32,000 nt of DNA, from NCBI GenBank assembly GCA_042852035.1, contig BAAFHK010000002.1:180001-212000 (forward strand). The letters run 5' to 3'. Numbering within the stretch: position 1 is the first letter of the stretch; every line of letters starts with the position of its first letter. Positions 5,169-25,310 of the stretch are shown here, piece after piece. The translations under genes and the position numbers were made by a program. A model generated the notes under the pieces. The model had not been told where the DNA came from, did no database searches, and saw nothing but the letters and a program-made list of their open reading frames with translations. The stretch comes from Candidatus Saccharimonadota bacterium. Lineage in GTDB: Bacteria > Patescibacteriota > Gracilibacteria > BD1-5 > UBA2023.

Positions 5169-5214
5169 AATTTTTCTTGCTTTCCGCACCTTCTAGCATA
5201 CAATTCACTAAAGT

Positions 5215-6012
5215 ATGATAGAAGCATTAGCACAAACATTCCAAGTCAGCCCCTTTGATGTTATGTTAGGTGGAGGTATACTTATTCTCTCTGGTATACT
5301 TTACTATACCATATCTCTTCATCGACTTTTTGAGGCCGCATTTGGTGCTATTATTGGTATTTGAGTGTATATTTTGCTTTCGGTGTTGTTGATTTGAGAT
5401 CCTCATCTTTGATCTGAGGGGGGAATTTTTCCACTTGGCTTCTCGGTATTTCTCGTAAGTATCTCAGTCTATTTAGTGTTTATATTGGCAATAATTTTTC
5501 CACTTCATTGAGGTCTTATTATTTCTGAACCAACGCATCCAACTCTCTATACAATATTGTTTTTTTTCGTTTCAGTCTTTCTCTTTTTTGCGCTCGGATC
5601 TGTTATTGTTTACATGGTTGAGCAAAGCTATGTTTTCAAAGTATGAAATATATTCACATGGCTAAAGGACTGATCTTTTTATCTAAATGTAATAAAGCCG
5701 TCAGCATTTTATAGCTTTGTTATGAGTCATCAATATGCTATTATCCCACTGGCAGTTGTTTTGATGCTTTATAAGCTCCTTCTGGCAAATATTGTAACAG
5801 CTGCCGTGCTTTCAGTATGGTATAATCTTGCGAATGTATGATTTTATAGAAAAAAGGAAGATTCTCACTATCGAGTAGAATTTCATGAAGTTTGAGGTTC
5901 TTCTTGATGACACTGATGAGGCCATGATGATCATTGACATGGTGGGGGGCATGCTGATGCTGGCCATGATGACCATTGACATGGCGGAGGTCACGGATGA
6001 TGACATCATTAA
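5215..6012 (+). CDS. Polytopic membrane protein (about 6 TM, possibly CvpA-like) with a C-terminal His/Gly-rich tail, 265 aa
   Basis: Frame 1 is open from 5215 to 6012 with 16 in-frame TGA. Hydrophobic helices run throughout. The tail reads 'HEVGGSSGGHGGGHDDHGHGGGHADAGHDDHGHGGGHGGGHH'. TAA at 6010-6012. Confidence 0.7.
5920..6003 (+). repeat. Imperfect 42-nt tandem duplication (2 units) inside the His/Gly tail
   Basis: Unit 1 (5920-5961) is ggccatgatgatcattgacatggtggggggcatgctgatgct. Unit 2 (5962-6003) is ggccatgatgaccattgacatggcggaggtcacggatgatga. Each unit encodes GHDDHGHGGGH... Confidence 0.8.
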
Positions 6013-7000: not shown

Positions 7001-7999
7001 ATGAAAATAAAATCTTTCATCATCCTTGTAAGTATTTTCATACTTTCGAGTTGTTTTTCTGATTATTTTGATCACTGGGAAGGTGAAAATACTGAGCCAA
7101 AGATTTCTTCGATTTATCCTTGAGATTTGACAGGAGAGCTTATTATTTTGCCGAGTAAAGACGCACTGAGCAGTTTGGTAGAAAAAATTTCCCAAGCAAA
7201 AAATCGTATATGGGTCGAGACTTATACCTGGACTGAGAAAACTACTCTTGAAGCCGTAAAGAATGCCTGAAAAAATGGAAGAGATGTACGGGTTATTCTT
7301 GAGGGAAATGTTTATTGAACGCCTCGGGTAAATGATAATGCTGTAGACCTAATGAAAGAAAATGGTATTTCAGTTGTATATGCAAGTAGTGACTATGCAT
7401 TTACTCATATGAAAATGTGGATCATAGATAATGAATGGTGTATAAGTACAGGAAATTGGTCACTTTCAACTTTTACAAAGAATAGGGAATTTATTTTCTG
7501 TAGTTCAGATAGATCTATTCTTCATTCCCTTGAAGAAATATTTCTCGCAGATTATAAATACCTTCCTCCAATTTTTCGAACCTATTGATTAGATACAAGA
7601 ATTTGACTTGCACCATTAAATCTCAGGAGCTTCCTTGAAGAGAATATTAAAAATGCGAAAAATGAAATTATTCTTTATAATCAGTCTATATCTGATGAAA
7701 GAATCCTCCAGTTGCTTTCTATAAAGGATAAAGAAAAAGTGAATGTTGAATTGTGTCAGTCATCAAAGTCAAATACTTGATCAATGATAAAATCTTTGCC
7801 CTATTTTACGAGTAATGAACCCTATCTTCATGCTAAAGTGTATCTTATTGATGGTAAAAATATCCTTCTCTGAAGTGCTAATATGACACAAAATGCAATT
7901 GATAATAACCGAGAAATTATGATAAAGATTGAAAATAACAAAAATATCTATGATAAAATCAAAAATCTCTACAATATTGATTGCAAAAGGCAATACTAA
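7001..7999 (+). CDS. Phospholipase D / cardiolipin-synthase / Nuc-family lipoprotein with two HKD motifs, 332 aa
   Basis: Lipobox 'FILSSC'. HKD 1 is 'HMKMWIIDNEWCISTGNWS'. HKD 2 is 'HAKVYLIDGKNILL[TGA=G]SANMT'. Same frame as track ORF 7352-7588. TAA at 7997-7999. Confidence 0.8.
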
Positions 8000-8072
8000 A
8001 TCTTATTTTTTGCTTGAGTATTTTGCAAAATAATCAACTTTTTGCTACAATAATGAGAGTCGTTACCATTTT

Positions 8073-14279: not shown

Positions 14280-16670
14280 TTAAGGATTTATTGGGGGTTG
14301 CTTAGTAGTTGTAGCTTGTGCTTGATCTCCCGACTTTTTCTCTTCAGGCTTAAAATAATCTTTATTAATGCTTGTTATGGCTTTTGCTACTTCTTCGGCA
14401 GCTTTTAGGGTCATAGAATTAGATGTCATAAGTGATTTTAGGAAATCATCCTTTGAGATAATTCATTTTTTTCATTCTACTTGTTTTTTAATTTCCTCAG
14501 TAGTATAGCTAATTGTATCCTCCCCAGCCTTATTCTTAATAGTTATAGGTGTTCCTCAATTGATGGTAACATTTACCGAATCAGAAGATCCTACTCTTCA
14601 AGAAAGGAATCAGGCTGAAGTATTATTTCCACCTTTCGATCAACCAGTAAGTGATTTAAAGGCACTCATTAACTCGCTGTCATTTGTGTTAATCTTTCAG
14701 TCTTTTGCATCATTTGTTCGATTCACTATTAGTTCAGCTTTTTCTTTGTCGTATCACATCTGCTGAAGGGCTTCCATTTTTTTATACTTGTTATCACCAT
14801 ATTGGTCATTTAAATGTTTTACAAGATCAGTGAATAATGTAGAATATTCTTGGTTTGTGCCTGAAGTTTTCCTGAGTATTTCTCAAGCTTCTTTTAAGGC
14901 AGGACTATTTATGTCATTCTTTGCATTCTTTAGGGTATCTCTAAATTTAACTTCATCAGCTGCTGATGTGACCTTATCGCCACCAAATAATTTTCCATAA
15001 TTTGATTTTTTAAAGTCCTCATCTCATTTACGTTGGAGCGCGATACCCGCATTATCAAGTACTTTATCTGCAGCTTTAAGACTGAGACCACCTGTACCAG
15101 GGATAGGTGTATATTTTGGTAAGTCCATCGCAAGTTTTCCAACACGTTTCCCCATTGCTTCAAATGGTTCAAATGCAGCCTTTGCAACCTTCGTAACATT
15201 CTTTGCTGCCATGAAGGCTGACCAAAGAAAAATAAGTGCAATAATATCGATGATAAGCGTTCAGAATACGCTTCATGTGGCTGATAATACACTATTTACA
15301 GTAGTGGCAGCCGCAGCATATTCTTTTATATCTGTAACTATTGATCCGTAGAATTTAAATGTAACTCATCCAAAGATTACTTCAGTTACACTCACATTTA
15401 TCGTTGAATTTGCTGATTCTGATCAATCATCTCTTTGTTCAACCTTCTTTTTGATAACGTTATCAGGAGATCCCATAATCCCAAGGATTTGACAGCCTTG
15501 ACCTCCTGGTTGCATGTAACTTTCTTCACATTTAACAGGAGTTGTTCCTAGACTTGGGCTTTGCAGAACAGATATGACAACTATACCAAAAGAGAGTGAT
15601 AATCCTACAAGTGCTGGTACAAAGGCGAGTCCTATAAATTCTTTAATTTCGAAGCTATCTCCATTTTCTTTTCCTCCAAAGAAACCATCTCACACAACAT
15701 ATCTGAGAGTAAGAAGGGGGGAGAAAATGGCATAAAACCAGAGTTTAATGGCTCTCATCATAAGCATAAATATGAGAGCAACGACCAAAAATCAGAATAT
15801 AACAAACATTACAACACCAAGGATTCATTTATTAACTATTCCACCTATGGACTGCATAACATCGGTTGTTGTGCTTAGTTTTTTTATTTCATTAAATTTA
15901 AAAAGACCATTTCCATAGATAAGAAGTGAACCGTAGATTCAGGAAGAGTTCGTAAGGATATCTTTTGGTTTTAAAAGTTTTGTTGGACTATACTGAGTTT
16001 GTCAGCTAACGACTGAATACGCAGGATCTGTAAAAAACTCATATTTATCAGGTATGGATTCTGTGTTCCACCAAGAATCAGGTGAGTTATTTCCCGCCAT
16101 ATACTTCTCCATCACTTCAGTTGGTATATTCATAACTGAAGCTGTGACAATTGTTGAGAGTGAAATGATGAATTGAACAAACCACCACGTCATCGGTACA
16201 AGTATAATTCCGAGAGCAAGACGAGGAAGAAGTTTTTTATATCAATAGTTCTGGGAATTAAATATCGTTGCCAGAGCTATGAATATGAGAAGTATCGCAT
16301 AGATAAAATAGGTGATATTTGACACAAGTACCCATAGATCATGAAGGATCGGTCTCAGGTTAAAAAGATCTCCCGTTGTCCAATCAGGTGACATGAGCCA
16401 TCCTGCGAGCATTATTGCAGGAGATACAACAAAAGATAAGAGTTCTAGTGCTATATTGAGTCAGCCTATTAATTTATTATACATTTTTACCATCTCTTCA
16501 TCTGAGGTACATTGCGGTTGATTTGCTCATCCACACTCTGTCGCAGCAAATGTAGGAGTTACGATTGAGACACTTGATAGTATATCCGTGCTCTTGGTAT
16601 CTATTTCGATAAAAAATCCTCCCAATATCGTGAGAGATAATATTATTGATGTAAGGATTTTTCGAGGCAT
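14280..16670 (-). CDS. 796-aa polytopic envelope protein. Topology, size and synteny suggest TrbL/VirB6/TcpH-like (inference only).
   Basis: Minus strand translated triplet by triplet. Open from ATG 16670 to TAA (complement of 14280-14282) with about 22 in-frame TGA. Contains track ORFs 16002-16193 and 15024-15212. Signal/anchor 'MPRKILTSIILSLTILGGFFI'. About 8 more TM helices (e.g. 'LLPRLALGIILVPMTWWFVQFIISLSTIV', 'ILGVVMFVIFGFLVVALIFMLMM', 'FIGLAFVPALVGLSLSFGIVVISVL'). Two loops carry Cys pairs ('ECGGANQPQC', 'KCEESYMQPGGQGC'). About 290-aa K/E/N/S-rich soluble C-terminus. Confidence 0.6.
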
Positions 16671-16687
16671 AGAATATATGTATTTTT

Positions 16688-16725: not shown

Positions 16726-17568
16726 TTATTCTGTCAGAGACGCTTTATAGTCTGACTCTGTACTAATAAGATTCAATTTTTTTACAAGTTCTGTTCCAGA
16801 GTCAGGAAGTACTACCACTACTTGCTTTATTATAGCGTCTCTATTGTTAATAAGAGTATCGAGAATCTTTCTATTTTGAGCCTGAAGGATGCTATATCAG
16901 CGCTGGAATCTTTCAACATAAGCAAGATAGACTCGAGCCCTATTTTCATCATTTTTTGCTTGAACATAGGTATCGATGACTGAGTCGACCCCATCGTATT
17001 CAAATGCTTTATACTTTGTCTCCATGTTAGACTTTGCCTCTTCTGTAAGAGAACTACTTTCGCTAATTACCCTTTGAAGCTCATTTGCTTGTTCTCTGAG
17101 CATTGCCATTCTGTCCGTTGTTTTTGTATAGTATGATTTGAGTATTTCAATATGCTCATCAAGTGCTGTCATGCGATCATTTGACTCCTCAAGCATGGTT
17201 TTGATATCGATCTTGAGCACGTTTACATATGATTGTAAAGCGAGCATATTTGTTCCGATGAGCTTTGTTTGAGCGTCGCGAGGATTTGCAAGCGCTTCTG
17301 CAACGGTAATATTCTCATCGAGTCCATTACGAGCTGAAGTTTTCTTTATGGTTGACTTCTGCTCAGAGATAGAAAGAGAAGCAGCTGTCGCATAACTTCC
17401 CAAATAGACCATATTTGCTTGTGTAAAATTTCCATCATTTCCAGCAACTACCCTCGGAGAAATATATGGAGTTATATAACCCCAAGAAAGATGAAGAACG
17501 AGCGTGAAGAACAGCGTGAATATTAGTGTGTTTTTGGTGAAATCCTTGATTTCAGGGTGCATATGCAT
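16726..17568 (-). CDS. N-terminally anchored coiled-coil protein, 280 aa (TrbJ/VirB5-like by architecture and position; inference only)
   Basis: Track ORF 16897-17568 extended through TGA 16897-16899 to TAA (complement of 16726-16728). TM 'TLIFTLFFTLVLHLSWGYI', then long heptad-like helices ('DIKTMLEESNDRMTALDEHIEILKSYYTKTTDRMAMLREQANELQRVISE'). Confidence 0.6.
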
Positions 17569-17628
17569 ATGCTGAATCGGTCAATAAAGATAGTCGAGTA
17601 CTCTTATATTACACGTTTTTAGAAAAGA

Positions 17629-19944
17629 ATGCAAAAAATACGTACAATCTTCACATCACTTCTCTTATCTATTTTTGGATATTCTCTGGTTTTTCCAGTA
17701 TTTGCCTCGATAGAATTCGTAGATAAATATGATTATAGTGATTATATTGATAAAATCAATATCACTTCAAGCGATAATGAATTTCATTTCAAGAAACAGT
17801 TTGAAAGTGAAAGAACGACCTTTTTTCTACGTTTTAGTGACTACATTCCTGAATCTTCGGATGAAGTTGATGTTATTTGGCACATTGATGGAAAAGACTA
17901 TCATCGTCACCTTGATTGGGACAATGAAGAACAATATGGAGATACGACATTCCCTCTTGTTACAAAAGAAAGAAGAGAAATTAGTTTGACTTTGGTTTTT
18001 CACTGAATGAAGAGACCAAAATCAGTTGAGTTAGTCACGAGTAATCAATCGAGTCAATGAAAAAGAATCATATTTCGTAAAGAATATACGAGCGTACAAG
18101 CAAGTGAATCGAATAGCGTAAAAGTCATAAGTCGTGCAGAGTGGTGAGCTGATGAATCACTTCGATATATGTCGAGCTCAAGAATAGCACAAAAAAAACA
18201 TGAATGGGAAAATCGTGGAAGAACCCCAAAAATTATCGAGGAAACAGAGATTGAAAGAGCGAAACGAATCAATTCAGATAAGGAATATAATAGCCTTATA
18301 TCTTTAGATAATGATTCCAATACGGTAGTTCGTCTCACTCGTTATGAATGAGGTAATAAGCTTATCTTCCCAATCCGAACGGCAAAAAAAATAAGCCGAA
18401 TTTTTATCCACCATACTGCAGAAGGCCTTGAACAAGATGCTGATGATGCGAGCCTTATTCGAGCAATCTACCTTTACCATACAAAAACAAAATGATGGTG
18501 AGATATTGGATATAATTTTATTATTGGGCAACGATGAGTCATATATGAGTGAAGATCATGATGAGATTATGTCGAATGAGCTCATGTATATGCTAATAAT
18601 CTTTGAACCGTATGAATTTCTGTTATATGAAACTATCAGACACTTCATCTCAATCGTGACCAAAGGACCTGACTTGTTGATGCAATATCATATGTTGCCA
18701 AAAAATACGGAATTAATGTTGATGAAGAGACTTCGGGTATTATGACGTGTAAATGAGGGGAGAATTGTTCTTGGAAAAAAGTTACTACCCAACGACTTGC
18801 TTGACATAGAGATGCATGAAATACAAGTTGTCCCTGAGATAATATATATGATGAGCTCCCAGCCATCAGAAATGAAGTTGTATGAAAAGTATGAAAAGTA
18901 AAACCAGTATATAATCCAGAAGTTCAAAAGAAAGATCCACTTGATCCTGAAGATGAAATTCAGTTCATGATACAGGCAAGCGCTCAAAATATAACAAAGA
19001 TTTCTTCTACTATTTTGAATTCACAAAATATTAATCCCCCCGCAAAGAGTATCCCATCAAAGAGTATTAAGATCCGCCTTTCCTATCCTTCTGATACGCT
19101 GAGTTTCCAGTCAGCCACAGAGAACAAGGCTATTGTAAGAATGAATGCTAAAATTCTCCCATTTCAAAAAAATACGGAAGGAAATGTATTCCTCAAGGGA
19201 ACTAATGAAGTGGTATTTAAATCAGGAAATAAGGAGTACAGCTGAAAAACGCTTACCGTAAGTTCCGATGTTATTCGTATTTCTTCATGGAATAGAATCC
19301 CACTCTGGGATAGTTCACGACGATACAACGATAACCTCTTTCGTGGGAAAATCTATATTTCGAATCAAAATGGTAAGCTTCTTGTTGTAAATGAATTACC
19401 TATAGAAGATTATCTTCGCTGACTAGGAGAAGTTTCTGATACTGACCATACTGAAAAAATTAAAACGATTCTTGTTGCAGCTCGTACTTATGCGTATTTT
19501 TATATAAAACCAACAAATAGAAAGTATGATACAAAACTCTATGATGGATCAGATAATCCTGATGAGTTCCAAAAATATCTTGGTTATGGATATGAGATGC
19601 GATCACCAAATGTAGCAAAACAGGTAGAGGAAACAAAGTGACTGGTTATTACCTTTAAAGAAAAGCTCATCAAACCATGGTATTTCTCAAGTTCAGATGG
19701 AAATACTCGATCTTTTAAAGAATACTGCCAATCAAATAACCCAGGGAAAAGCTGCGAAGATATCCCATACCTTCAATCTGTATCAGATCCTGCAGGAATT
19801 GGACACCAGAGAAGTGGTCATTGAGTTGGTATCTCTTGAATCGGGGCAACCTATGCTGCAAATATGGGGAAGAACTTTAAACAAATTATCGGTTATTATC
19901 TCAATGGAACACTTATACGAAATATTGAATCAATCAAGGAATAG
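17629..19944 (+). CDS. Secreted/anchored peptidoglycan hydrolase fusion of N-acetylmuramoyl-L-alanine amidase (Amidase_2/PGRP) and SpoIID/LytB, 771 aa
   Basis: Frame 1 checked line by line, with 26 in-frame TGA. Joins track ORFs 17629-18006, 18169-18351 and 18967-19245. Signal 'MQKIRTIFTSLLLSIFGYSLVFPVFA'. Amidase_2 motifs are 'RAEW[G]A', 'IFIHHTAEG', 'K[G]W[G]DIGYNFIIGQR[G]VIYE[G]RS[G][G]' and 'LA[G]HRDA[G]NTSCP[G]D'. SpoIID motifs are 'LPIEDYLR[G]LGEVSD..ILVAARTYAYFY', 'PWYFSSSDGNTRS' and 'GH[G]VGIS[G]IGATYAANMGKNFKQIIGYYLNGT'. TAG at 19942-19944. Confidence 0.9.
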
Positions 19945-20047: not shown

Positions 20048-20593
20048 ATGTATCTTTCCGATAAAGACATCAAAAGTTCCATTCAGACTGGTGAAATTAC
20101 TATTACTGACTTTGATAATAATCGACTTCAACCAGCAAGTTATGATATACGGCTTGGATCGAAATTTCTTATCGTAAAAGATTATTCTGTGGTAAATATT
20201 GATCCAGTAAACAAAGTTCTTCCTGAATATGAAGAAATAACAGTAACTCCTGAAGATGGATTTATTCTGCGTCCTGGAGTTACAGTTCTTGGCACTTCAA
20301 TAGAAAAATTTTGATCGGAGAAATACCTTATTCAACTTTCAGGAAAGTCTTCACTTGCACGACTTGGTCTAATCGTACATAATACAGCTGGGCTTATTAA
20401 TCCTGGTCACTATCTCAATATTACCTTTGAGCTAGCAAATATGAATTCTATACCAATTATTCTTAGGCCTGGAATGGAAATTGCTCAGATTTTATTTTCT
20501 GAGATGAGTTCCCCACCTCAGAAAGACTACAGAAAAATATGAAGGTATGGTGAAGGGGAGGCAAATATGGTGAGCTATGTCCATAAAGATTAA
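20048..20593 (+). CDS. dcd: dCTP deaminase, 181 aa
   Basis: Track ORF 20048-20314 extended through 2 TGA. 'LQPASYDIRLG' and 'GKSSLARLGLIVHNTAGLINPGHYLNITFELANMN'. TAA at 20591-20593. Confidence 0.85.
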
Positions 20594-23475
20594 CTTGTCA
20601 AAGTGTGCATAAAAGCATATCTTTCTATTGGAAAATCTAGCATTATTACACTTAATATTTTCGGGCGTTCTTTTATGAAAGTATGATATTTTCATTTTGG
20701 ATCTGCTACCTCTTGTCTTATAAAATCCTCATAGATTTTTCGATCAAGGCGAGACATTCACATATAGAAGAAGTGTTCCAAGTTCGAAACCCTAAAAAAT
20801 GAAATATCTCATTTTTGTACCATGAGAAGTCTTCTTTCGACTCATCATGCTTCGGTTCGTAAATCTTCAAAATCCATATTCCACAAATTATATAATGCGG
20901 ATTTTTTATCTTTTAGCTGAGCGATAGTTTGTTCATTTGTGCTATCAAATTTTAGGAAATGATCTATTAGTAAGCGGAGTCATCATCAGATTTTTACTCT
21001 TAAGGTTGATAGGAGTCATTCAAAAACTTTTCCCTCAAAAGCAATTTTATTTTTTATGAGGAGTTTTACGAGTTTTTCTCATCAGTTTCCTCAAAGAATT
21101 CAAACAATCCTGTCATCCTCGATTAATCATCGAAGAAGTCATGCTATATTTCCTCATTGAGACTCCAATCAAAGAACTGCATCGAGTGCTTTTTCTCAAT
21201 TTGCTTGATTGAACAAGATTCTGAGTGAACTCGAGCTGTCAGGTTCTCACAATTTTTTTATATACCTTCATACCTCTTCATGACTTCATTCCCTGATAAA
21301 TGATATGGCCAATTCAGCTGTTTTTGAGTCTATAACCGCAGGAATCTCTGAGAATTTGAGCAACTTTACTCTTCCTATGAGTTTTTCAATTCATTTAATA
21401 CTCAGCGCATCTAGAGCTTTCTGGAGTCATGTCATTTCGTACTTTATATCATATAGTTCAAGAAATTCTGCCAATTCTTTAGTTGTAGAGGTGTTATTAA
21501 ATTCGGCTACCGCATCGAGTAATCACTGTGATGCAGTTTGTCAGCTAAATCGTTCAAGAAAATCTGGTCAATACCTATTTAATTGTTCTTTTATCTTTAT
21601 GGAATCTTGTTCTCATAAGATTTCATCAGCCTTTCATGCATATCATTTTATAAGCATTTTTCTGGCTTCTACTTTAGTGAGTTTTCCTTCGCCTTCTCGA
21701 GTCATAATTCGAATCTTCTCCGCAAGTTGTTTTATCCCATAGTTTCACAAAGATCACTTTACTTTATTGTGTGCATCTATAACTCTCTCGGCTTGAGCTG
21801 GAGTTAATCATTCTCTTTGAATAAGGAATTCTTTCCTAATAACATCTTCCTTTACTCATCTTTGCTTCGCTAGAGCAGCTATTTCATCATTAAGTCTGAG
21901 TGCGTTTGGAAGGTTATCTATTTTTGATGATCCCATTTTTTCTCACTTGTTGAGTCAGTGACTTATGCTTTTGAAGAGCACATCCTGAGTATCTTTCGTA
22001 TTAATTCATATTTTTTCAAGCGCAGGTCAAAGTGTGGTGAAGAGAATTCATATCTTTTCTATAAACTTTGCTTTTGCATCTGTCATTTTTTCCTGCGCAA
22101 GAGCTCGTTCTAATATGGTAGGAAGTTGAGAAAGAACACGTTTCATTCTCCCTAAAGCTTCTGCGATTTTCTTTGCTTTAATAAGCTTACCGAATTGTCC
22201 TACTCAGAGGGTAATGCTATCGAGAGTGTCAGCGAGGGTGGAGAGTCATTCAAGTGGCATATTCACATTTTCTCACGTCATATTTATTCCATTTGCCATA
22301 TTTCTTCATGAGTCTATAGCTCAAGCAATGCTTCATACAGTAGGGAGTATAGGAATAAGTTGTGATAAAAGAATAAGTATTTGTTGTATATTCATTCATT
22401 TCATTGATTCAGAAATATCTCATGAAATGAGTTTTCCTCATTCAAAATTCGGGGTATTTGAGAACAATCAATCTTTTCATCATTTTGCAGTTGAGCGTAT
22501 GGATCTTGCCTCGTTCTCATACGCTTGAAAATAAGAACTCGACTGATTATTTCAAAGAAGTACTTTTATTAGGTCAATCTTCTCTCAGTTTACTGTGACA
22601 TATCTATCAGGTGATCAGATTGGTATTGAAAGTTCACTGAGATTTCCTGCTTTTAGAAAATTTAAAAGAGTTTGTCTTCAGTTCAAGGGAGCCCTTTGAT
22701 TTAATTCATCAAGAAGCGCTCTTCAGACTATGTAGCTAAGATTTGCACTTGAAAGATTTCTTCCTATTCGCATCTCAGTTTGTATTTCATCGGGCAGAAG
22801 TTGTATTTTCCCAGCCAAGAGTGGGAGGATGATTTTTTCGTGTATATGAGTTCAAAACTTCTTATCGAGTCATTGAACGGAGAGTACATATTTCCCAAGA
22901 TTCTCTTTTTGATACTCAGATCCATCTGGAGCTTTGATGCGTTCCTCATGGAATGCTTTCGCAACAGATTCACTAAATCATAACTGTCATGAGACTCTTG
23001 CTTTAAGTATCTCTGAGAGATAGTAGGCTGAATCGGTAGAGGCAAATGGTCCAGCAATTTCTGTTTGCCTATTTTTTACAGAAAGAATTTGTTCTATTGT
23101 AACTTCCGAAAGATCGTCTACCGCTTCACGAGCAACTTGCATATACCTATCTTTCACATCATCCGGAATAGATCTATCTCATAGAAAAGAAAGTATGACC
23201 GCAAGAACGGGTGCAACTATCGCATCAATTTTTTGTTTATCAATTTTGAGTCATTCGAGAAGCCTCTCTGTTTTTCTTATGAGATCTTTTGATATTCCAT
23301 CCACTTTTGTTGTTATAGTTTCTGGGACTCATAGAGACTTTAGTCATTTGATTTGTTCTGTAATATTTCAGAGAGACCGTACTCAAAAATCCCGAGGTAA
23401 GAGAGGGGCGCTCTTCATTTCTCGGGTTGCTCTTATGCCATCGAGGGAATTTTCTAGAGATGCGGTGACGGACAT
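20590..23475 (-). CDS. 961-aa hypothetical protein, mostly helical by composition, with a central hydrophobic segment; no family recognised
   Basis: Minus strand translated triplet by triplet. Open from ATG 23475 to TAA (complement of 20590-20592). About 65 of about 86 Gly codons are TGA, so the standard track shows only antisense ORFs here. Central 'MNIQQILILLSQLIPILPTVGSIAGAIDSG'. Gly-rich helical repeats near the C-terminus ('GLLRGLIEDDRIVGILGGNGGEKLVKLL'). No Walker A motif seen. Confidence 0.75.
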
Positions 23476-23484
23476 GTGACTACT

Positions 23485-24531
23485 CTACCATACTCTCTCA
23501 TTTCATGCAAACAACATGCTTCATTTTCTTTTTCTCCATCGAGAAGGCTGAAATACCTTACTCATGTATTGATGGAATTTATTTCAAACTTCATAGAGGG
23601 GAACCCATTTATTGTCAACAAAAATTCCACTAGGATATATGTAACGGTCTCTTGGCAAACCAGAAATTTTTGCCAATCTCCCCATAATTGATATTCCATA
23701 CAAATCCGAAGAAAAACTTCTTTTCACTACACTATCTCATGTGTTTCACCATTCGAGCCCCCTTGGGAACTGGGGAACCTGGGAGACTTGAGTTGATCAA
23801 TACCTTTCACTCAATGCATCAATATTTGTAAGAAAAGCCTCTTCTAAAGTTATACCATTTTCATGATGAGAAAACGGAACTCAAGAAGTGGGAAGATTCT
23901 CATTACTTATATATGACGGAAGGATGAGTCAACTGTAGGTATCAGGATCTCTCGTATCGCTGAGATGGACTTCTCATATTCAAAGTGCTTTATATGCCCT
24001 ATCTGCCATTCTTTGTGAGAGTGGTCAAATCTCGAATCATTTTATATCGATATTTCGCTTTCATTGCCTTTGGGCTCATATAAATTGTGCTAATCCAAGA
24101 ATTCCACTTCCGGCTCAAATATCCCAACCATGAAAATGTGATCATTCTGTAGTTTCTATTCAAGAAATAATATCCTGCATAATAGCAACTGTTGAGGGTA
24201 TATCGAGCAACATGGCAATCTGATATCAGATAGTTTGAATTACTTGATGAGTTTCTGAAGGATAAGAGAAATGTGTTCTGTGGTTCTGTTGCCCAAGGGA
24301 ACCTCAAAATACTTCTCAAAGGATTTTGAGGTATTGTGTGCCAACGAATTCAACATCTTTTCTCTCATTCTGGTCAACTTGCATGAGAAAAACCAAAAGA
24401 TATTTTATACAGATACTTCAGAGAAGTGAAAAATCTAAAGAAGATTTCTCTCATTTTGCTTCCTCAAGATCTTCCAGAAGTGATGTCTCCTCTCGAAATA
24501 CTCACTCTTTAAATGGAACTCAAAAGTACAT
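23485..24531 (-). CDS. Class I SAM-dependent methyltransferase, 348 aa, substrate unknown
   Basis: Open from ATG 24531 (in-frame TAA just upstream at complement of 24547-24549) to TAG (complement of 23485-23487), with about 24 in-frame TGA. Motif I is 'HFHGWDI[G]AGSGILGLAQF'. An acidic residue follows beta-2 ('IDIK[G]FEI'). No NPPY/DPPY motif. ATG 24384 is an alternative start. Confidence 0.65.
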
Positions 24532-24629
24532 ATTGAAAATGAAGATTTACTTTGTCAATAGTAATATAAATCCACACTTTGTAAAGTATAAATTTTCTTT
24601 TATAATCAAATTCTCTTCATATAAAACTT

Positions 24630-25310
24630 ATGCATAATTACGAAATCGAAATAAAGGTCCTTCTCGGTGACAAAGACGGTATGGAAAAATTCATGAAGGC
24701 TATCGAAATAAACTTTCCTGCTTATAAGCATTCCTATACAGAAAGCCAGAAAAATCACTATTTTGAGTGAGGAAACCTCCTTCATCTGCTCGGTACTTTT
24801 AGGCAATATATCTCTGAAGAGGAAGCAACGTCTCTCCATAAACTTACAAAAGAAGCAAAATCTTTCTCTGTTCGCACGCGAGGAACGAAAGATGAGACTA
24901 TTCTTGTTGTGAAAGCAACAGTAAATGATGAATCGAGTTCAAATGGTACTGCTCGAATTGAGTGGGAAGTGGATCTTGCTCCCATGAGTCTTGAAGAAAT
25001 GGATAAAAAAGTTCTTGAAGCAGGCTTTCAATATCAAGCGAAGTGGTCACGTGCACGCGATGAATATCGACTCAATGCTGATACAGCCCTTTGTATCGAT
25101 AAAAATGCATGATATGGCTACCTCGCGGAATTCGAACGAGTCATCACTGACGAATCAAAAATCACAGAAACTCGCCATGAGCTCCTTCGTATGATTCGAT
25201 CTCTTGGTTATGATGAACTTGATCAGGATCGGCTTGCACGAATGTTTGATTTTTATAACAAGAATTGGAGCGAATATTACGGTACCGAAAAGGTATTTAG
25301 TGTTTTATAA
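24630..25310 (+). CDS. CYTH-domain protein (CyaB/ThTPase-type triphosphate tunnel metalloenzyme), 226 aa
   Basis: N-terminal ExExK signature 'MHNYEIEIKV'. 'FSVRTRG', 'ARIEWEVD' and '[G]YGYLAEFERV'. Includes track ORF 24909-25112. TAA at 25308-25310. Confidence 0.75.

Follow-up and report, generated by a model that had tools for sequence, protein, structure and literature searches.

Two neighbouring genes of a UGA=Gly bacterium: a predicted methyltransferase with a core resembling protein arginine methyltransferases and a clade-restricted helical protein

The locus and its genetic code

The metagenome-assembled genome (MAG) HHAS10 comes from activated sludge and belongs to the class JAEDAM01, formerly placed within Gracilibacteria (PMC11393006). 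A stretch of 32,000 nucleotides of this genome (contig BAAFHK010000002.1; hereafter the window) carries, at positions 20590-24531, two adjacent genes of the minus strand, called A and B here. Gene A (23485..24531; HHAS10_08780) runs from an ATG at 24531 to a TAG at 23487-23485 and encodes 348 amino acids. Gene B (20590..23475; HHAS10_08770) begins 9 nt further with an ATG at 23475, stops at 20592-20590 and encodes 961 amino acids. On the plus strand, two genes serve as syntenic anchors. The dCTP deaminase gene dcd (20048..20593; Pfam DCD, E=7e-37) converges with B, and the two stop codons overlap, as had been seen in an earlier reading made from the letters alone (the sequence-only reading). 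On the other side, a CYTH-domain gene (24630..25310), identified by a Pfam match (CYTH, E=2e-7) and by synteny, diverges from A. We consider it probable that A and B are two ordinary, uncharacterised genes of a bacterium in which UGA stands for glycine, namely a stand-alone N-methyltransferase (A) and a modular membrane protein (B), brought side by side by history.

Under translation table 11, no open reading frame (ORF) in 20590-24531 exceeds 145 amino acids and the whole window shows 13 ORFs of at least 150 amino acids, whereas with table 25 the window is densely coding. Translation of the minus strand with table 25 confirmed the 348-aa and 961-aa ORFs, 9 nt apart, that the sequence-only reading had proposed. 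The same reading had called these genes invisible. GenBank holds entries identical to A and B, labelled hypothetical proteins of 'Candidatus Altimarinota bacterium'. Thus, the region is invisible only to a table-11 ORF track, because UGA is recoded and both genes are publicly annotated. In this, the locus does not differ from what is already known of code-25 genomes (Gracilibacteria, Absconditabacteria, JAEDAM01), in which the same recoding explains an apparent emptiness under table 11.

The assignment of UGA to Gly, not Trp, in this genome is supported by the comparison of B orthologs, in which UGA codons stand opposite UGA or GGN and never opposite TGG. Since UGA swaps with GGN among these orthologs, and since the UGA=Gly recoding of the same MAG was already published (PMC11393006), a Trp reading is not retained. 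UGA is used for Gly with unequal frequency along the window. It accounts for 24 of the 37 Gly codons of A (65%) and for 65 of the 86 of B (76%), versus 31% when 25 other ORFs of the window are pooled (Fisher test, p=5e-5 for A and p=4e-15 for B) and 12-14% in the housekeeping dcd, thyA and FKBP-type genes. A similar picture is found in related genomes (loci L001 to L005, described below), with shares of 59% and 48% for B of L001 and L003, 55% for the A-like gene of L004 and 0-7% for dcd. The high UGA use of A and B may reflect low expression or a long confinement to recoded lineages. At gathering threshold, no Rfam family was found across the whole window, and no tRNA gene either.

Gene A, a predicted methyltransferase of an unnamed family

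A word-indexed search with A retrieved A alone. When 1.84 billion cluster representatives were searched exhaustively with HMMER, 84 relatives came out at E<=1e-3, of which 16 had E<=1e-10, and nearly all of the 84 are 320-370 residues long. These relatives indicate that A is, strictly speaking, no orphan and is a member of an unnamed and uncharacterised family; all named members are annotated 'hypothetical protein'. Among GTDB genomes, the family is found in Maridesulfovibrio, Solidesulfovibrio and Desulfonatronovibrio, in a few Acidobacteriota and 'Proteobacteria' MAGs, and in Candidatus Peribacteria and Candidatus Gracilibacteria. Its spread thus covers Desulfovibrionales and bacteria of the candidate phyla radiation (CPR) of the Gracilibacteria/Peribacteria type. 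Several Maridesulfovibrio genomes have two paralogs at distant chromosomal positions. About one quarter to one third of the representatives have Trp where the glycine loop should have Gly, or are Trp-rich overall. These are proteins of UGA-recoded bacteria translated with code 4, the others coming from standard-code bacteria.

A model of A was built with AlphaFold2 from a 51-sequence alignment (predicted local distance difference test score (pLDDT) 91.4; predicted template modelling score (pTM) 0.91). According to this model, the protein would begin with a helical domain (about 1-125), followed by a Rossmann domain. The strands of the latter (132-138, 160-167, 186-190, 207-210, 258-263, 298-305 and 308-311) form a seven-stranded sheet with a beta6-beta7 hairpin. 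In the 51-sequence alignment, M107, D110, D137, A153, E211, F233, P256, R331 and W332 are invariant, and E167, D192, N210, P214 and E231 (the latter at least 90% conserved) are nearly so. The glycine loop expected to bind S-adenosylmethionine (SAM), or motif I, lies at 24094..24129 on the minus strand (G135-W-D137-I-G-A-G-S-G-I-L-G146). It includes at residues 136-146 the 'WDIGAGSGILG' string singled out from the letters. It has the D/E-x-G-x-G-x-G form and follows beta1; conservation reaches at least 90% at G141 and at G143, and the first Gly of D-I-G-A-G-S-G, just after 'DI', is encoded by UGA. E167 ends beta2 within 'GFE', for which the family consensus is 'GIE'. It can be proposed that SAM is held by the D137-x-G-x-G-x-G loop together with E167 and D192. 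The segment that follows beta4 (23839..23904, minus strand; 'SNENLP...EEAF') contains N210 and E211 and extends to E231.

The C-terminus of A (23488..23541, minus strand) consists of the invariant R331-W332 followed by a low-confidence tail of 16 residues, of which residues 341-348 have a pLDDT below 50. Most standard-code members of the family (among P0011-P0127) end exactly at ...R-R-W. This suggests that a free C-terminal Arg-Trp, or the carboxylate itself, contributes to the active site or to an interaction. In recoded CPR members, short C-terminal extensions are frequent.

Comparisons of the family with known proteins point repeatedly to the eukaryotic protein arginine methyltransferases (PRMTs). 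With the model of A, Foldseek ranks PRMT7, PRMT5, PRMT1 and PRMT3 highest in the PDB (E down to 1.8e-5), and almost all of the 37 matches at E<=1e-3 are methyltransferases. With a profile of the A family, the top PDB sequence is PRMT2 (E=1.4e-4), followed by CARM1, PRMT1 and PRMT7, and HemK appears as a weak match (E 0.84). The profile match to PRMTs spans 'MLxDxxRT...LDxGxGtGIL', that is, motif I and the helix that precedes it, the family consensus 'Y.L.ML.D.P.T' being aligned to 'LHLEMLADQPRT' of PRMT2 and also to PRMT1. An hhalign comparison with PRMT1, which is a strong lead short of proof, gave a probability of 83% (E=9e-6) over 153 columns. In this alignment, E167 falls on the PRMT1 'GIEC', so that the 'GIE' motifs are paired, 'FFP' faces 'IFPD', and E211 and E231 are paired with the glutamates of SEW and YES, the loop being longer in A. 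Finally, one of the 51 members scanned with Pfam matches PF05185 (E=0.0025).

The A family shares with PRMTs the helix ahead of motif I ('ML.D...T', compared with 'EMLkDevRT' in PRMTs), a motif I of the type 'LD.G.GtGIL', the 'GIE' at the end of beta2 and an F-P motif. Two of its conserved glutamates, which follow beta4, are aligned with the double-E loop as candidate counterparts. In contrast with PRMTs, it has no C-terminal beta-barrel, dimerisation arm or THW loop, keeps the canonical beta6-beta7 hairpin, ends with an invariant R-W, carries an extra N-terminal helical domain of ~90-125 residues and is bacterial, not eukaryotic.

Several of these results weigh against a PRMT-like assignment. 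Used as a single sequence, A has no match in Pfam or the PDB, nor in NCBIfam, PADLOC and PHROGs, and it does not reach the PRMT threshold of any Pfam or NCBIfam model. When A is superposed on PRMT structures, ~200 columns are aligned with a TMq of ~0.35. The alignments and the model of A show no trace of the beta-barrel and dimerisation arm, and the family alignment has no THW-like motif, R331-W332 being the sole conserved C-terminal element. Because the PRMT likeness stops at PRMT1 residue 180, we file A as a predicted class I SAM-dependent methyltransferase with a PRMT-like catalytic core and not as a PRMT family member. The class I assignment itself, already made from the letters alone, agrees with the profile, Foldseek and hhalign results. 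Within these bounds, the core of the A family appears closest to that of eukaryotic PRMTs.

Regarding the chemistry, A most likely carries out the N-methylation of a cationic nitrogen held by two glutamates. E211 and E231 would be the counterparts of the PRMT double-E loop, and the methyl acceptor, a positively charged guanidino or amino nitrogen, would sit between them. A further step would be to regard the family as a minimal bacterial PRMT, that is, a guanidino or arginine N-methyltransferase that kept the cofactor lid and the double-E loop and has no beta-barrel. We put this forward tentatively, as a possibility that has some way to go before it could be preferred. The arginine specificity of A is unproven, since the likeness to PRMTs is partial and both the beta-barrel and the THW loop are absent. 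Searches of the literature found nothing on bacterial PRMT-like families. If the proposal were true, prokaryotes would possess in this family a relative of the catalytic core of eukaryotic PRMTs, or else bacteria would have a new route of arginine methylation.

The features of the segment after beta4 also bear on another possibility, in which A would be an orphan nucleic-acid methyltransferase, acting on DNA (N6-adenine or N4-cytosine), rRNA or tRNA, and not on a protein or a small molecule. N210-E-x-x-P214 indeed stands after beta4, where amino-methyltransferases have (D/N)PP(Y/F), and the lower Foldseek matches include a type I restriction-modification (R-M) methylase subunit (3lkd) and rRNA methyltransferases. 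Moreover, A has in common with HemK/PrmC and the N6-adenine DNA methylases the class I fold, an Asn right after beta4 and a Pro four positions on (N210-E-N-L-P214). However, the family motif is NE(T/N)(L/I)P and not the (D/N)PP(Y/F/W) of these enzymes; the NENLP of A bears out the earlier remark that no NPPY-type motif is present. In addition, the model contains no DNA- or target-recognition domain, the top matches by sequence and by structure are consistently PRMTs, NCBIfam yields no rRNA or tRNA methyltransferase match, and no R-M partner occurs in any A-family context examined. A nucleic-acid substrate is therefore unlikely.

Gene B and its upstream element

Searches with B gave no meaningful match in Pfam, NCBIfam, PADLOC or PHROGs. 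In the PDB, sequence and profile searches found only a de novo designed helical barrel, dismissed because the similarity is compositional. Among 5.8 billion proteins, B has homologs in only three other clusters; like A, it is not an orphan strictly speaking. No further relative was found in GTDB genomes, JGI metagenomes (two scans), IMG/VR or phage genomes (tblastn), and the window contains no paralog. B was considered as a phage tape-measure-like protein and this candidate was rejected, since nothing around it points to a phage and neither PHROGs nor phage genomes gave a match.

Measured against L001, the ratio of nonsynonymous to synonymous substitution rates (dN/dS) of B is 0.165 overall (0.12 in the N-terminal part, 0.21 in the C-terminal part), and its neighbouring genes have values of 0.02-0.08. 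B is thus a real gene under purifying selection that evolves faster than its neighbours. The protein appears to be all-alpha, restricted to one clade and devoid of any recognisable domain.

Two regions can be distinguished in B from the alignment of its homologs. The N-terminal module (residues 1-490; 22006..23475, minus strand) is kept in the three homologs, with 79% identity to L001 and 68% to L003. It contains two conserved hydrophobic helices. The first (residues ~84-100, AIVAPVLAVILSFLG; 23176..23226, minus strand) reaches a Kyte-Doolittle value of 1.8 in a 19-residue window and is a candidate membrane anchor. The second (residues ~363-386, QILILLSQLIPILPTVGSIAGAI; 22318..22389, minus strand), with a window value of 2.0, is a candidate membrane segment. 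Of these, the sequence-only reading had described a central hydrophobic segment, which is indeed present at 364-386, and had missed the one at ~84-100. It had also mentioned Gly-rich helical repeats near the C-terminus; self-BLAST finds no internal repeat in B. The C-terminal region (residues 491-961; 20593..22005, minus strand) is variable. It is 65% identical in L001, and L003 has an unrelated region of ~700 residues in its place. Conservation of this part is limited to the closest relative.

The L003 homolog (P0004; L003 2702-6304) has 1,200 residues. Its C-terminal region shows a sub-threshold match to Pfam Peptidase_C2 (E=2e-4, 20.9 bits for a cut-off of 23.8), and its motifs GNCYF, HAYS and NPH presumably correspond to the surroundings of Cys, His and Asn in calpains. 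A search of PDB sequences gave no calpain match for this region. Two tandem segments of ~60 residues ('VERSRASGG...YPDG') are seen at ~640-760 of P0004, ahead of the calpain-type region at ~870-1200.

As a working model, B may be a membrane-anchored modular protein. Its 490-residue N-terminal module would be a clade-specific anchoring or assembly module, with two hydrophobic helices probably inserted in the membrane, and its functional C-terminus would be exchangeable, a calpain-like cysteine-protease region occupying this place in one relative. Structure prediction counts against this model in that it gave nothing to lean on: from a 3-sequence alignment, AlphaFold2 produced a uniformly helical, unusable model of B (pLDDT 40.6), with which Foldseek found nothing at E<=1e-3. 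Because of this failure, hydropathy and three sequences are the basis for the proposed anchoring in the membrane and for the modularity.

The same organisation raises the possibility that B is an exported effector of host interaction, of the polymorphic-toxin type, with an N-terminus devoted to delivery or membrane insertion and C-terminal domains acting on Zoogloea. Like polymorphic toxins and modular effectors, B combines a conserved N-terminal part (490 aa) with a C-terminal region swapped between close relatives, as illustrated by the calpain-type motifs of L003 (GNCYF...HAYS...NPH). It also evolves faster than its neighbours and is restricted to one clade. Moreover, HHAS10 is an episymbiont of Zoogloea, to which it is attached and which it seems to depress (PMC11393006). 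Nevertheless, B differs from polymorphic toxins by the lack of a signal peptide, of any known secretion or trafficking domain and of an adjacent immunity gene, dcd directly following, and by its mere three homologs. The C-terminus of B in the window carries no toxin or enzyme signature, the dN/dS of 0.2 indicates purifying and not diversifying selection, and the C-terminus would be cytoplasmic according to the positive-inside pattern at helix 1, as assessed by eye. An effector role is, on balance, doubtful, and the modular membrane protein of the working model is preferred.

Upstream of B, the DNA alignment with L001-L003 reveals a conserved element (23476..23512, minus strand), made of TTGCAT (23510-23505), 17 nt, TGG-TAGAGT (23487-23482), 6 nt and the ATG. 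Across the B relatives, it reads TTGC(A/C)T, 17 nt, TG-n-TAG(A/G)(A/G)T, 6-7 nt, ATG, and the window contains only one site with this pattern. From its geometry, we infer an extended -10 promoter with transcription starting at or near the ATG, which would yield a leaderless transcript. A generic sigma-70 scan speaks against this in not calling the element as a promoter.

Within A, the element falls among the final 15 codons, and the TAG of A is formed by the first three bases of TAGAGT. The ORF of A continues 16 codons beyond the RW end of its family, into the element. Thus, B appears to own its control element, and the entry of A's frame into it would yield the 9-nt spacing. This tight spacing had been taken as a sign of coupling. 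We regard it as incidental, because A's frame runs into B's own conserved upstream element and stops there. In the divergent intergenic region between A and the CYTH-domain gene (24532..24629), promoter-like sites for both genes occur at 24592..24563 and 24585..24558 (minus strand) and at 24579..24606 (plus strand). All are mere consensus matches, no more numerous than expected from shuffled sequences.

Neighbours by history

Related genomes allow the association of A and B to be examined. In L001, L002 and L003, the gene order is amidase-dcd-B-CYTH, with 90-105 nt from B to the CYTH-domain gene and no A. The dcd of these loci is close to that of the window (96% identity for L001 and L002, 87% for L003). 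In L004 and L005 (GCA_043769645.1), with a dcd identity of 79%, the closest homolog of A (34% identity) occupies the corresponding slot and converges with dcd; B is missing. Upstream of the A-like gene of L004, ~750 nt (7254-8001) contain no code-25 ORF in any frame, which is unusually long for a compact genome. The other A-family neighbourhoods all differ, with for instance hisS, recQ or prfC adjoining, or a position downstream of ilvBNC. No relative of B is found within 5-8 kb at any of ~60 further A-family loci, tblastn with B over 72 loci gives matches in L001-L003 only, and none of the three other B loci contains A.

These comparisons suggest that the slot downstream of dcd is occupied by A, by B or by both, depending on the lineage. 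Since related genomes carry one or the other and never both, A and B appear not to form a functional pair and to be neighbours by history, not function. As a caution against this conclusion, the comparison rests on three B-bearing relatives and on two relatives with A next to dcd. Furthermore, no terminator is predicted between the two genes, so that in HHAS10 A and B could be co-transcribed from the promoter of A.

The sequence-only reading had seen here a cryptic operon. Taken this way, A and B would be translated together and act as a functional pair, as a novel defence or toxin system based on modification, with the methyltransferase either shielding against B or activating it. The common orientation, the 9-nt distance, the lack of a predicted terminator and the unusually high UGA use of both genes agree with such a system. 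However, related genomes do not show the two genes together, three B loci being devoid of A and A-like loci being devoid of B, including one in the very same dcd slot; the sequence-only reading had itself named such an outcome as a refutation. B also retains a conserved upstream element of its own. Nothing matches in PADLOC or PHROGs, there is no nuclease, ATPase or immunity-type neighbour, and the nearest relatives of A are protein, not DNA, methyltransferases. A functional pair of this kind is highly improbable.

Regarding known defence systems, neither A (P0001), B (P0002) nor P0004 has a match at E<=1 in PADLOC, which covers BREX, DISARM and others. The motif of A is not the (D/N)PP(Y/F/W) of R-M enzymes, its neighbours are B, the CYTH-domain gene and dcd, and no nuclease or specificity gene accompanies them. 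Likewise, the contexts of seven A-family members contain no R-M gene. In the absence of a PADLOC match and of partner genes, and given the PRMT-like character of A, the two genes are not an R-M, BREX, DISARM or other defence system. On this point, the present results and the sequence-only reading, which had noted the lack of nuclease and ATPase, are in agreement.

The absence of A from the closest relatives raises the question of whether A is, in HHAS10, a decaying or recently inserted passenger gene devoid of any current function. The unstructured read-through tail at its 3' end could be understood in this way, and so could a 10-nt direct repeat, ATTTTCTTTT, found at 23523-23532 and 24592-24601, which brackets the ~1.07-kb segment with A that is missing from L001-L003. 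This repeat may record where a deletion or an insertion took place, or may be a chance product of AT-rich DNA. As the mark of a mobile insertion, it was rejected as unsupported, short AT-rich repeats being expected by chance. On the other hand, the 348-codon frame of A is intact, every family-invariant residue is kept and the fold is predicted with confidence. A distant relative has a homolog in the same dcd-adjacent slot, and its divergence from A (34% identity, compared with 44-45% for the amidase and the CYTH protein) is typical of vertical descent. The UGA-rich codon use of A also indicates a long residence in recoded lineages. It is therefore very unlikely that A is a mere passenger, and we keep to the reading in which A and B are two ordinary genes.

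A few other features of the window may be mentioned. A 771-aa secreted Amidase_2 and SpoIID cell-wall hydrolase is encoded at 17623-19944 on the plus strand, and the amidase is kept with dcd in all relatives. This region may be relevant to the episymbiotic lifestyle. Next to the hydrolase gene, the minus strand encodes an 801-aa multi-pass membrane protein (14280-16685) and a 312-aa protein (16726-17664). A further multi-pass membrane protein is found at 5212-6012 on the plus strand, with a His/Gly/Asp-rich tail, GGSSGGHGGGHDDHGHGGGHADAGHDDHGHGGGHGGGHH, that looks metal-binding.

The recoding of this MAG and the records of both genes were already public. What is new is modest, namely an unnamed methyltransferase family with a predicted PRMT-like core, and a clade-restricted, fast-evolving helical protein with an apparently swappable C-terminus. 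In a host-dependent CPR bacterium, a protein with the properties of B could bear on host interaction, on evidence that is thin. The useful result, and the sole part worth following, is the definition of the compact A family, for which Pfam and NCBIfam have no model. Because this family is present in culturable sulfate reducers, such as Maridesulfovibrio salexigens (WP_012765721.1) and Solidesulfovibrio carbinoliphilus (DFW101_0744), it is accessible to genetic and biochemical tests that would not require the uncultured episymbiont.

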